Source: a virus
Taxonomy: Duplodnaviria; Heunggongvirae; Uroviricota; Caudoviricetes
Reading direction: 5' to 3' (one strand)
Virus record (IMG/VR): IMGVR_UViG_2548876956_000009
Location: 1-7,836 of that record
DNA: 7,836 nt
Shown: piece by piece, positions 3,001 through 6,000 of the stretch
How the letters are laid out: each line of letters begins with the position of its first letter
How positions within the stretch are numbered: position 1 is the first letter of the stretch
Made by a program: the position numbers

Positions 3001-6000
3001 TGATTCGGATGTCTGGTCACGCAGCTGGTTGTCGCAGTGCCAGCACAACACCATTGCGCCGGTACCATAACGGTGAATGACGGTTTCGCTGTGATGATAA
3101 TCGCCGTGTGGCCACTGGCAGGATTTAATATGGCGCAACAGCCAGTCAGACAATGCACCAGCACCACCAGCAGCACGAATCACCCGTGCGTTACTGAAAA
3201 ACGGCAGCAATGTTTTGTCTTCCACCAGCGGCTGGCGAACGGCAGGAACGACCCCGGACGGCAGATTACGCATGCTTTTCGGTTCCGGCCCCACCAATAC
3301 CCGGGTATTGTGGAATACCGGCATGGATTCACGGCCCGGCTTAACGATCACCAGCCCGAGTTCCGGTACCAGAACAGGTCGAAGTAATACCCGCACGTTA
3401 CCTCCAGATCCGTTGCTGGAATGTGCGGGACGGACGCGGTGGGCGTTCGGAGTAAGGAAGCCTGACGGAGATTATCCAGTGACGATAATCGAGGCTGAGG
3501 GCTTTCTTAATCTCGTATCCGTGTCTGCGGTAACACTGAATCAGCCATTCGGCCTGTTCTTCAGTGCATGGAGGGTGTTGGTACCAGTCGGTTTTAAATA
3601 CGCGAGAACGCCGCCCATGCCTGCTGGCACGAACGGCATCAGAATTGTGATTTTTGGTATTGTGCGCCATTTGTTTTCTCTGCTGGCGCAGCAGGTGCCA
3701 GTTGTTCAGGCTGGCGTGCGAATTGTAAACCAGAATGCCAGGAAAAAACAAAACCCGCCGAAGCGGGTTAAGTGCGGGTGCGTTGAGGATGCCTGACACA
3801 TCAGAGGTGGCGAGGGATTCTCCCCCGCCTGGTCTCTTACTCCTCAGGTTCGTAAGCTGTGAAGACAGCGACCTCCGTCTGGCCGGTTCGGATTCGTACC
3901 TCGCAGAGGTCTTTCCTCGTTACCAGTGCCGTCACTATGACGGTTAAACAGATGACGATCAGGGCGATTAACATCGCCTTTTGCTGCTTCATAGCCTGCT
4001 TCTCCTTGACCTTTCGGTCCGTAAGAGGCAATCTATATGTGACGAGCATATAGGGGCCTCACTTCGATTTATAGTCGGGTGGGGCTTTTATCTATCTGCC
4101 GTTGGTGTTCATGCCCGAGGCAGATAGCCTCAAGCACCCGCAGCAATTCTACTTAACTCTGCCGTTACAGCAAACCGTTTTCGCCCGATATGGGAATTCC
4201 CATATCGGAATGAATTCAGTTCACCTGGCGAGGCTTAGCGTACAATTTTTTCCGTTTTGTGAGCTGCCCCTACATGCCGCTGGCGCGGCATCCGGAAAAA
4301 GAATCCACGTCCTGAAGGACGTGGAGGATGTCAAGTGCCTTTCCTGGTCCAGCCATATTTTTTGAATGCAGGCGCCGCTTCATCGGTTTGTAGCCATTCT
4401 GCAAATCGACGGGTTTCATCATTTGCATCCTGACGTACTGTAATGTTCATATCACGCCATATCACGTAGTCTGGCGCTATTTCCACGACATCACCAATTT
4501 CTGGATTACTGGCTGCCCAGTCAGCCCAGGTTATCCAGACATCTGCTCCAGGCTGATTCTCAAGAGCCTTACGTGCAGTTCCGCTATTGGGCGCATATAA
4601 AATAATATTTTTTCGGATTGCGGCGACAGTTTCTATATTCCCTTTACGTCCGGCAATATCTTCCCAGACGCCAGTGCCTGATGTATTACTGGTACCACCA
4701 CCATCATTAACAATTACGCCAATCCCGGGTCTGGTCAGGTCGTCAATACTCCGGATATTTTTAGGATTACCTTTCTTTACCAGTAAAATACTTTTTCGCA
4801 GATAAAGAGGCTGAATATCTTTTTCACTGAAGCTGTCTTTATGGTCCCGAATGATAGCCAGAGCAGATTGTTCTGATGCGCCAAACAAGATATCTGCATT
4901 TTTTTTGGCATCTTCATTCCATTTGTTCTGTGGACCGTAATGAACGTTCACTATAACACCTGTTTTTTCGGCATAAAGTTTGGCTGCTTCAAGCAAGGCT
5001 GTATGCGGGCCACCAGGACCATACAGATTGATATCAGCATAAGCAGCAGAAGACAGGAATATTAAAAAACCTGCCATTATGTTCCTCATAAAAAACTCCT
5101 TTTATTGGTTATCATGAAATAAAATTATAAACACTACAAATAATATATATTATATCCAGATAAACTTATCCGACTTTACCTCGTGCATAGCTTGTTATTT
5201 AAAGTTAACAAAATAAGGAAAATTATACGCATATTGAAGAGTATAAACCTTACATGTTGATTACATTTTTGTAATCAACATCCTGTTTGGAATAGCCAGC
5301 CTTTAATGGATAACTATTTCTGACAATGCAATGAGTATAATCAAGTCCATCTTCCACTGAGAATTAGAGGCGGCATGCTTTTTCCGGCTCTTGCCGGATA
5401 TCCGTAATTGTCCATAATCTGCAGATTTATACCTTCTGCATGACCTGTCAGCGAAAATTTGTCCGGTGTTTCTACGGGAATGACATCAAAAGTTACACGC
5501 ACTCGCGTTACCGTGTAGACCTACTTTCCTGCACTTGCAAGATCACAGTGGTGTAACCGTAACAGGAATTTATTCTCTGGACCGGCAGTAAATCCCTGAG
5601 TGGCGTGGTTCCCATATCAATTTCCCGCCAGGCAGCCTCCATTGCCAGCGTACAGGCTGGAGCCATGACCTGCCCTTTAAATCTGGCCCGACCATCCCAC
5701 CGGACGTGTTCTTCTCCCCTGAACTTAGGTACAGTCATCTCCAGTGGCACAAAAGTGTCAGCGCCATGATTTTTGACCGTTATCGCGCTACGGATATTTT
5801 GTTGACTGGTGAAAATCACCCCGCAGAATCAGGCTTATTCCCTTAACCCGGGATTTCATCCTGACCGCCGCCTCACTACGACCAATCAGACTGCCGATGC
5901 ATTTTACCTTCATTGTTAGTATCATGATTTCAGGCCTGCACCATCCGCTCATTGCCCGGACTTCCGACAAATCCCGGCAACCATATCCCGGTGCTTGTTC

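Follow-up and report, generated by a model that had tools for sequence, protein, structure and literature searches.

Why does the early region of a prophage carry an AT-rich gene for an exported protein with the fold of a transporter receptor? In the window, the whole 7,836-nucleotide stretch of DNA analysed in this study, a first-pass annotation had described a secreted, ModA-like, orphan binding protein of 252 aa, encoded by a self-contained cargo unit, and had suggested lysogenic conversion or superinfection exclusion as its role. The answer reached here is that the gene, paa/adfO, is very probably a horizontally acquired single-gene prophage cargo encoding an exported protein of the AcfC/PEB3/Paa family, which acts as a lysogenic-conversion colonisation factor and would most likely bind a small anionic or sulphated ligand.

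The gene and its copies in E. coli

By its nucleotide and protein matches, the flagged ORF is identified as paa, a name that stands for "porcine attaching-and-effacing associated"; the gene is also known as adfO, and it is a virulence gene that has already been described and studied experimentally. RefSeq loci annotated "paa: AcfC family adhesin Paa" match the window DNA at 99-99.9% nucleotide identity, and at this level of identity 603 of the 5426 complete E. coli genomes (~11%) carry the paa DNA. Matching DNA is also carried by PPompW phages, where it is annotated "Paa/adherence factor AdfO", and the top protein cluster for the ORF, which it matches at 99% identity, bears the name AcfC family adhesin Paa. 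The protein differs by 2-3 aa from WP_001815900 (O103:H2) and from the PPompW Paa/AdfO protein; the three substitutions that separate it from the O103:H2 allele are E34D, V45I and G181E. The word orphan is therefore appropriate in that no cognate transporter accompanies the gene, but not in the sense of an unknown, since this is a named virulence gene.

The same gene is found in prophage CP-933O (O-island 57, O157:H7; AdfO, Z2053), PPompW and O103:H2 12009, with 97.5-99.9% nucleotide identity across the locus. These loci share the neighbours seen in the window, with hokD/ckf downstream and a decayed fimbrial gene and a DUF1627 gene upstream. The pairing of adfO with ckf in CP-933O (OI-57) is as in the window, and PMC8565820 states that adfO is always accompanied by ckf in OI-57.

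Correct recognition of paa/adfO matters for annotation because the gene is a routine virulence-typing marker for EPEC, STEC and ETEC, and labels such as "ModA-like orphan binding protein" or "substrate-binding domain-containing protein" hide a documented colonisation factor. The finding of paa itself brings no new biology. The minor additions made here are the cassette boundaries, the decayed upstream fimbrial gene and the conserved upstream palindrome; the boundaries and the palindrome, together with the invariant motifs described below, are handles on how a transporter-less binding-fold protein promotes adherence.

The carrier prophage and the paa cassette

The carrier is a lambdoid prophage of the CP-933O/PPompW type with paa in its early region. 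The gene sits where the first-pass annotation had placed it, with DnaC-like and DUF1627 genes on one side and hok/sok on the other (Table 1). The hok/ckf gene adjoins paa as a neighbour and lies outside the cassette. Weak PADLOC matches of the DUF1627 neighbour are HTH-domain noise. Comparison of the same locus in related prophages, which had been proposed as a check, revealed presence and absence of the gene: homology between the window and the paa-less prophage L004 is lost between 4159 and 5979 (blastn), and QueH and DUF977 genes take the place of paa in L004 and in the same slot of other related prophages. O103:H2 12009 carries a P-type replication module, whereas the right side of the window is DnaC-like (ydaV type), a difference that reflects mosaicism of the carrier prophage and not of paa.

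Table 1. Positions of the paa/adfO locus features in the window
Feature	Position	Strand	Basis and remarks
hok/gef toxin ORF ("ckf"/hokD)	3837..4049	-	Pfam HOK_GEF, E=2.9e-23
sok antisense RNA region	3990..4139	-	Rfam sok, 103.9 bits; hok/sok entry 3837..4139
Variable cargo slot of the prophage family	4160..5978	.	Between hok/sok and the DUF1627 gene; blastn against L004, L004 annotation and the distribution of partial matches
Mobile paa cassette	~4268..5293	-	Extent of homology, prophage copy against plasmid alleles, 86-89% nucleotide identity
paa intrinsic terminator hairpin	4304..4325	-	Terminator scan and inverted-repeat search; followed by TTCTTTTT
paa/adfO CDS	4331..5089	-	ORF listing; 252-aa precursor, 27.7 kDa
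Sec-type signal peptide (predicted)	5036..5089	-	Residues 1-18, cleavage between AYA and D; heuristic
Shine-Dalgarno AGGAG	5096..5100	-	Six bases 5' of the ATG at 5089; sequence
Candidate -10 hexamer TATAAT	5222..5227	-	Invariant in four divergent paa upstream regions; putative promoter
Perfect 12-nt inverted repeat ATGTTGATTACA-N4-TGTAATCAACAT	5254..5281	-	Repeat search; conservation of the cassette starts with this repeat
Decayed chaperone-usher fimbrial subunit gene	5295..5762	-	tblastn with plasmid fimbrial protein; abuts the cassette

The fimbrial remnant next to the cassette aligns with the plasmid fimbrial protein in three frame segments of 74-85% amino acid identity. It contains two frameshifts and one internal stop, both of its ends are absent, and RefSeq labels it "fimbrial protein, frameshifted; internal stop". 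A Pfam search of the two ORFs within the remnant gave no match. An intact homologue lies within a usher/chaperone operon on a plasmid.

The limits of the cassette were drawn from divergent copies on plasmids. Plasmid paa alleles occur in ETEC/STEC, E. albertii, Salmonella and Citrobacter, on IncF plasmids beside IS elements and without a prophage, and they keep the same cassette, including the palindrome, the Shine-Dalgarno sequence, the terminator and the region 5' of the gene. RefSeq labels these alleles "substrate-binding domain-containing protein". A plasmid BLAST search with window 4250-5400 as the query covered query positions 19-1044, and pairwise blastn against pRM10740 covered window 4268-5283. 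The unit had previously been delimited as 4296-5340, which is close to its real extent, but the homology with the divergent plasmid copies gives the limits of Table 1 instead. The Paa protein of pRM10740 is 92% identical to that of the window (20 of 252 residues differ). A dN/dS of 0.08-0.13 against the plasmid alleles indicates that paa is under purifying selection. A relic or pseudogene was considered as well, and is ruled out by this ratio and the intact reading frame.

The composition of the gene sets it apart from its surroundings. The paa CDS has 44% GC and a GC3 of 0.348, compared with 0.46-0.66 in the neighbouring genes, and region 5090-5340 upstream of it has 26.7% GC compared with 49.8% for the window. 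The Shine-Dalgarno sequence (AAAGGAG/AAAAGGA) is kept in all four divergent paa copies that were aligned. The terminator, directly after the stop codon, has a 9-bp stem with 6 GC pairs and falls within the segment common to the plasmid copies. Together, these features bear out the earlier description of a self-contained AT-rich cargo unit.

A sigma-70 scan of the cassette gave no convincing promoter, with counts not above those of shuffles. The conserved TATAAT hexamer was missed by the consensus scan because its -35 is poor, and it is only the conservation of the hexamer that suggests a putative promoter for paa. Further upstream, the core of the palindrome, ATTACAAAAATGTAATCAA, is kept in three of the four aligned copies and differs by a single substitution in the plasmid copy of E. 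albertii, and beyond the palindrome the four copies diverge completely. The palindrome is possibly a regulator site. The terminator, Shine-Dalgarno sequence, conserved TATAAT, deviant GC3 and the presence or absence of the gene among related prophages identify paa as a phage moron, an autonomous cargo gene, with a promoter that is putative.

Export, fold and family of Paa

The N-terminus of the precursor, MRNIMAGFLIFLSSAAYA followed by D, shows a basic n-region, a hydrophobic core and an A-x-A motif at -3/-1, as judged by hydropathy and the -3/-1 rule. Because the signal region contains no Cys, the protein is not a lipoprotein. The predicted mature Paa comprises 234 aa (25.8 kDa). In the AF2 model, residues 1-19 are disordered (low pLDDT) and the chain is folded from residue 20, and the mature PEB3 crystal chain begins at the residue aligned with Paa 19. 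The precursor would accordingly be a Sec substrate that loses its signal peptide upon export and is not lipidated.

Pfam SBP_bac_11 (PF13531) matches Paa over its full length as a single domain (residues 20-247, E=1.5e-34). Among structures in the PDB, Paa matches AcfC (4jb7) with E=1.5e-81 and PEB3 chains with E=3e-81 to 5e-79. The AF2 model (pLDDT 91.3, pTM 0.84) was compared with these structures by Foldseek, and superimposes on AcfC and PEB3 with an rmsd of 1.2-1.8 A, 52-53% identity and target-normalised TM values of 0.95-0.97. In the model, Paa has two lobes and the class-II fold of periplasmic binding proteins, as a member of the AcfC/PEB3/Paa family. An alignment of 30 homologues (51-92% identity) has 49 invariant columns, and the window protein has all of them; it retains the family-invariant motifs GPGGPH, SNTSGTGVWED, NSG, WxTWxDW and R212. 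Placed from the fold, these motifs would line the inter-lobe anion-binding pocket. The initial reading of the ORF as a secreted 252-aa protein with a periplasmic-binding-protein fold is thus confirmed by the Pfam match, the AF2/Foldseek comparison and the heuristic signal peptide, and the search brought up no housekeeping binding protein with an adjacent transporter.

Whether Paa is a molybdate, tungstate or sulphate binding protein of the ModA/TupA/Sbp importers that has been parted from its operon was then judged from family models and gene neighbourhoods. Paa shares SBP_bac_11 and the class-II periplasmic binding fold with ModA, Sbp and CysP, ModA and Sbp are its next-best structural neighbours after AcfC and PEB3, and weak NCBIfam matches exist. 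The ModA matches are short and local only, and score 20.3 bits for TIGR01256 (cut-off 62.5), 18.2 for NF002920 (470), 14.5 for NF002918 (288) and 11.7 for NF007958 (253). The Sbp/CysP models score 22.6 bits for NF008022 (288), 21.5 for TIGR00971 (155.5) and 19 for NF008106 (308), so that 12-23 bits stand against cut-offs of 62-470. In the structural comparison, ModA structures reach a TM of ~0.66-0.78 with 11-18% identity to the Paa model, ModA/Sbp structures together lie within TM 0.66-0.78 and 11-19% identity, and PDB entry 1sbp matches over a partial region only (E=3.6e-4). The term ModA-like is therefore justified at the level of superfamily and fold, but fails at the family level. Paa instead belongs to a distinct, tightly conserved family whose solved structures hold organic anions: AcfC 4jb7 contains D-aspartate, and PEB3 3fj7 contains L-phospholactate.

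The gene neighbourhoods point the same way. ModA, Sbp and CysP importers have modBC/cysTWA-type partners, and none is near paa: neither the window nor the ~13 kb annotated around the gene in two reference records (O103:H2 and PPompW) contains transporter genes, be it modB, modC or another permease or ATPase gene, as had been noted for the window initially. No transporter is linked to the family gene in Edwardsiella, Francisella or Helicobacter, or on E. coli plasmids. In Enterobacter, a complete ABC system lies 0.7 kb from the homologue on one contig only; it was not counted as a partner because it comes with an SBP of its own and is missing on a second contig, which encodes the identical protein. 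Paa would not be working as receptor for an ABC importer of its own. Membership in the ModA, TupA or sulphate-binding families is ruled out, the likeness being one of fold, and the importer reading, which we consider next to impossible, is effectively refuted.

Role of Paa and comparison with known systems

A role in virulence is documented for the gene. In PMC8565820, which cites the original work, an adfO mutant is reported to have markedly lowered HeLa adherence and altered secretion, and Paa is implicated in colonisation of the pig ileum. A contribution of Paa to attaching-effacing (A/E) lesions is reported in PMC2749873 and PMC10562709. Because published mutants are reported to lose adherence and A/E lesions, the initial suggestion of lysogenic conversion was right. 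The alternative suggestion, that paa serves the phage itself as a periplasmic superinfection-exclusion or anti-phage factor, draws on position only: early regions often hold exclusion genes, and paa adjoins hok/sok. Paa matches no PADLOC defence model (E<=0.01), and its PHROGs family, phrog_11834, is labelled unknown function. Furthermore, its homologues are mostly found in non-phage chromosomal or plasmid contexts, in Enterobacterales, Vibrio, Aeromonas, Francisella, Helicobacter and Campylobacter. With a virulence phenotype already on record (PMC8565820), a phage-serving role is very improbable, and this part of the first-pass annotation is not upheld.

How Paa promotes adherence is debated, and a surface adhesin and a periplasmic ligand sensor are the two mechanisms contested in the literature. 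Paa most likely would bind a small anionic or sulphated host-derived ligand, and could promote adherence either directly at the cell surface or indirectly via effects on chemotaxis or secretion. As a true adhesin, whether surface-bound or secreted, it would reach the cell surface after Sec export, e.g. by type 2 secretion, and bind sulphated host glycans directly. This mechanism is in line with the adherence and A/E lesion phenotypes and with the name adhesin, which current RefSeq and VFDB-style nomenclature give to the protein, and adfO was identified in work on adherence and type 2 secretion (Ho et al. 2008, as cited in PMC8565820). In addition, in vitro binding of AcfC to heparin, chondroitin sulphate and mucin was seen in ELISA (PMC5976639). 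On the other hand, no outer-membrane anchor, lipobox or autotransporter domain was found in the Paa sequence, and the model has the fold of soluble periplasmic binding proteins. Fractionation located AcfC to the periplasm, and its deletion left adhesion to Caco-2 and HT-29MTX cells unaltered (PMC5976639), which speaks against plain surface adhesion as the mechanism of this family. Direct adhesion by Paa is accordingly conceivable, but we regard it as rather doubtful.

The same observations on AcfC, together with its effect on chemotaxis to mucin (PMC5976639), favour a non-adhesin function, in which Paa would be a periplasmic small-anion binder that relays its signal to one of the host's chemoreceptors or to a transporter encoded elsewhere, with the adherence defects arising indirectly. 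Candidate anions are a 3-phosphoglycerate- or PEP-like metabolite, an acidic amino acid or a sulphate ester. The binding-protein fold is complete in the model, the invariant motifs are taken to line its pocket, and the crystals of the homologues hold small ligands. For PEB3, the current description is that of a transporter component acting on phosphate-containing metabolites, with ligands of the 3-phosphoglycerate type (PMC12469816). Contents of the bovine rumen and rectum induce the EDL933 gene, and a link of the E. coli gene with chemotaxis is discussed for bovine gut contents (PMC8524897). However, paa/adfO mutants are reported to lose adherence in cell culture, a setting in which chemotaxis should be of little importance, and neither in E. 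coli nor in the majority of the other genera examined does the gene have a linked partner chemoreceptor or permease. An indirect, periplasmic mode of action is a serious candidate, albeit one that we stop short of calling probable.

A more specific proposal would make Paa a prophage-delivered orphan periplasmic sensor of a host phospho- or sulpho-metabolite that feeds a chromosomal chemoreceptor, transporter or secretion pathway, with the palindrome as a dedicated regulator site. This proposal is speculative and, as a whole, unlikely. If true, it would mean that the phage rewires the niche sensing of its host. It largely follows published ideas on AcfC and PEB3, and the new elements would be confined to the regulatory site and to extending these ideas to Paa.

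AcfC of V. cholerae (4jb7) is similar to Paa in sequence and structure (52% identity, TM 0.97, rmsd 1.2 A), and also in its signal peptide, equal length and invariant motifs. Like Paa, it is a colonisation factor without a dedicated transporter that is encoded on a mobile pathogenicity element. Its gene is part of the VPI-1 island under ToxT control and, unlike paa, lies beside a chemoreceptor gene. The mutants differ in phenotype: the AcfC mutant has a mucin-chemotaxis defect with cell adhesion intact (PMC5976639), whereas paa/adfO mutants lose adherence according to PMC8565820.

PEB3 of C. jejuni (2hxw, 3fj7, 3fjg and 3fir) shows 52-53% identity and a TM of 0.95-0.96 to Paa, and the members of its clade in the alignment share the conserved motifs. 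PEB3 is encoded by a chromosomal core gene, whereas Paa is mobile cargo, and PEB3 is N-glycosylated at a DFNVS sequon where Paa has DSFSEK at the aligned position. Phospho-metabolites are its documented ligands, and PEB3 is needed for normal gut colonisation (PMC12469816).

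Identity, reading frame and protein family

The minus-strand ORF that the first-pass annotation had presented as an orphan is the known, named gene paa (adfO, Z2053). A megablast search with positions 4250-5400 of the window returned 557 records matching at 99% or more nucleotide identity, and 603 of the 5426 complete E. coli genomes cover at least 80% of this query, the gene there being annotated as 'paa: AcfC family adhesin Paa'. The whole window is matched to at least 80% in 26 of the 5426. In O103:H2 strain 12009 and phage PPompW_132418 the annotated gene order around paa is that of the window (Q, RusA, DUF968 (ydfU), small ORFs, hokD/gef, paa, decayed fimbrial gene, DUF1627, replication genes, cro/cI-like (dicC/dicA)), and their Paa proteins differ from that of the window by just 2-3 residues (E34D, V45I, G181E). 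The gene is well known, having been described in 1999-2003, and is in routine use for virulence typing.

The 252-aa frame is present as claimed in the six-frame ORF list, and the signals and composition ascribed to it were recovered. The bases 5' of the ATG are AAAAGGAGTTTTTTATG, with the Shine-Dalgarno 6 bases from the start, and the terminator right behind the TGA stop consists of a 9-bp stem, in which 6 pairs are GC, and then TTCTTTTT. The GC content of the 250 bases 5' of paa is 26.7% compared with 49.8% for the whole window, and the coding sequence (44% GC) has a GC3 of 0.348 compared with 0.46-0.66 in neighbouring genes. In comparison with two plasmid alleles paa has dN/dS values of 0.13 and 0.08 and so is under purifying selection. 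The N-terminus, MRNIMAGFLIFLSSAAYA followed after the predicted cleavage site by DINLYGPGG, is charged, with a hydrophobic core and an A-x-A motif in the manner of a Sec signal peptide, and has no cysteine; by these rules of thumb and homology such a peptide is predicted, as had been proposed.

Features of the window around paa
Feature	Position	Strand	Details
sRNA STnc100	204-370	minus	gammaproteobacterial; Rfam 104 bits, full length
Broken ORFs and small DUF3927 gene	~385-1002	minus	ORFs of 95 aa, 48 aa and 105 aa
hok/sok type I toxin-antitoxin locus, complete	3837-4139	minus	HOK_GEF ORF 70 aa including mok-like extension; Rfam sok 103.9 bits
Variable cargo slot	4160-5978		between hok/sok and DUF1627 gene; comparison with related paa-less prophage
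Plasmid-shared paa segment	~4268-5293		
paa terminator	4325-4304		
paa ORF	4331-5089	minus	252 aa
AT-rich upstream region	5090-5340		
Shine-Dalgarno	5096-5100	minus	AGGAG
Candidate promoter element	5222-5227	minus	TATAAT
Inverted repeat, putative regulator site	5254-5281	minus	perfect, 12 nt
Decayed chaperone-usher fimbrial subunit gene	5295-5762	minus	directly upstream of paa cassette
DnaC/IstB-like ATPase (ydaV type) and DUF1627	5949-7464	minus	

Pfam SBP_bac_11 matches Paa over its full length (E=1.5e-34). The top PDB match is V. cholerae AcfC (4jb7, E=1.5e-81), C. jejuni PEB3 matches at E=3e-81 to 5e-79 (3fir, 3fjg, 2hxw, 3fj7), and after these come sulphate-binding proteins with E about 1e-4. 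An AlphaFold2 model built on a 30-sequence alignment (mean pLDDT 91.3) has no structure before residue 20 and folds well from there on. It superimposes on AcfC with a target-normalised TM of 0.97 and an rmsd of 1.2 Å and on PEB3 with a TM of 0.95-0.96, which upholds the periplasmic-binding-protein-like fold. The structures of ModA rank behind these, with TM 0.66-0.78, rmsd 3.5-4.4 Å and 11-18% identity. The NCBI ModA, Sbp and CysP models all score 12-23 bits, far under their cut-offs of 62-470 bits; the label 'ModA-like' accordingly fits the fold but misnames the family, which is AcfC/PEB3/Paa. Across 30 homologues, with identity down to 51%, 49 positions are invariant, including G24-H29 (GPGGPH), S134-D144 (SNTSGTGVWED), N168-G170, W185/T187/W188/D190/W191 and R212. 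In line with other class-II binding proteins, these motifs probably make up the ligand pocket between the lobes.

Transporter linkage and function

No ABC transporter permease or ATPase gene is present in the window, as had been stated, and paa is an orphan in this sense, although not one peculiar to this locus. Paa homologues stand alone in Edwardsiella, Francisella and Helicobacter chromosomes and on E. coli plasmids, where no adjacent ABC components were found. On one Enterobacter bugandensis contig (L006, 1313-6750) a 74%-identical homologue is preceded, at a distance of 0.7 kb, by a complete ABC importer made up of a 362-aa SBP_bac_11/SBP_bac_6 protein as its own binding protein, a 589-aa double permease and an ATPase; a sensor kinase/response regulator pair is also near. 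This importer neighbourhood is absent from a second contig with the identical homologue (L007), and its proximity, the sole transporter linkage seen in the family, may be coincidental. Since the homologues stand alone elsewhere, and since the Enterobacter importer comes with a binding protein of its own and is missing on the second contig, the transporter-unlinked state characterises the AcfC/PEB3/Paa family as a whole.

By homology, Paa is predicted to be a soluble protein that Sec exports and that has the fold of a binding protein; the family-invariant motifs are kept. The literature on the gene, taken from secondary citations, describes poor HeLa adherence and altered protein secretion in an O157:H7 adfO mutant (PMC8565820), a role of Paa in A/E lesions (PMC10562709, PMC2749873) and in pig ileum colonisation (PMC8565820), and induction of EDL933 paa/adfO in bovine rumen and rectum contents (PMC8524897). 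These second-hand reports on adherence, A/E lesions and colonisation support the suggested role in lysogenic conversion, in which Paa would be a colonisation factor recognising an anionic host-derived ligand. An adhesin role for Paa at the cell surface is a minority possibility. In fractionation AcfC is found in the periplasm, and in ELISA it binds heparin, chondroitin sulphate and mucin. It also promotes mucin chemotaxis and hyperinfectivity, and Caco-2 / HT-29MTX adhesion does not require it (PMC5976639). The AcfC crystal structure holds D-aspartate. The alternative to the adhesin role, that Paa stays in the periplasm for sensing or uptake and affects adherence indirectly, is a little likelier but still short of an even prospect. 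The other proposed role, superinfection exclusion, finds no support: Paa has no PADLOC match, and its family is found mostly outside phages.

The paa cassette and the variable slot

Plasmid paa alleles (86-89% nucleotide identity), which occur on IncF plasmids of E. coli, E. albertii, Shigella, Salmonella and Citrobacter, align to the window only from just beyond the terminator to ~200 bp 5' of the start codon. The allele of plasmid pRM10740 has 92% amino acid identity to the Paa of the window, and the others are more divergent (86-89% nucleotide identity). Because RefSeq labels the plasmid alleles (matches H74-H92, e.g. NZ_CP043824.1 38896-39654) just 'substrate-binding domain-containing protein', annotation-based virulence screens can overlook them. 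In an alignment of four divergent paa upstream regions, otherwise 86-89% identical, conservation starts abruptly at the outermost conserved element, the palindrome ATGTTGATTACA-N4-TGTAATCAACAT, and runs via an invariant TATAAT, ~27 nt further downstream, to the Shine-Dalgarno; 5' of the palindrome the copies share no related sequence. As conservation begins at the palindrome and plasmid homology ends past the terminator, what is transferred is a single gene together with a control region and a terminator of its own, in agreement with the self-contained AT-rich unit first described. The TATAAT is a candidate promoter element; a consensus promoter scan called no site in this region of the cassette, and its counts were not above shuffled controls. 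The palindrome may be a regulator binding site.

The cassette lies, as had been noted, between the replication genes and the hok locus, with a DnaC/IstB-like ATPase and a DUF1627 protein on the right and a Hok/Gef toxin ORF with sok RNA, then DUF968, RusA and antiterminator Q, on the left. The adjoining fimbrial remnant has 86% nucleotide and 74-85% amino acid identity to an intact plasmid gene belonging to an usher/chaperone operon, and survives as three frame segments: its frame shifts twice, one stop interrupts it and neither terminus is left. Its 3' end abuts the cassette boundary, which suggests that paa and the remnant came in together or that recombination at the boundary joined them. 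Compared with a related prophage without paa, homology breaks off between 4159 and 5979. At this locus that prophage, like other related ones of E. coli, holds the epoxyqueuosine reductase QueH and a DUF977 gene in place of paa and the remnant. Presence in some related prophages and absence from others is what one expects of a prophage moron.

The prophage backbone is mosaic. At the place of the ydaV-type ATPase beside DUF1627, O103:H2 12009 (L001, 7700-9973) and PPompW carry a P-type replication protein and a DnaT-like protein. STnc100 lies downstream of the antiterminator Q gene region. At the place of the broken ORFs the O103:H2 record has a 'tellurite resistance TerB family protein' pseudogene with an internal stop; Pfam gave no match for the ORF at 685-1002.

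Comparison with O-island 57

What this analysis adds on an already known gene is small and descriptive and amounts to no new kind of system: where the cassette begins and ends, its conserved palindrome, the fimbrial remnant next to it and the other cargo that the slot can hold. On prophage CP-933O (O-island 57) of O157:H7 EDL933, adfO and the hok-family gene ckf (Z2054) sit together, and the two are reported as constant companions, always found jointly (PMC9729726, PMC10562709, PMC8565820). This pair matches the layout of paa and hok/sok in the window, the hok/sok locus corresponding to hokD/ckf of O-island 57.
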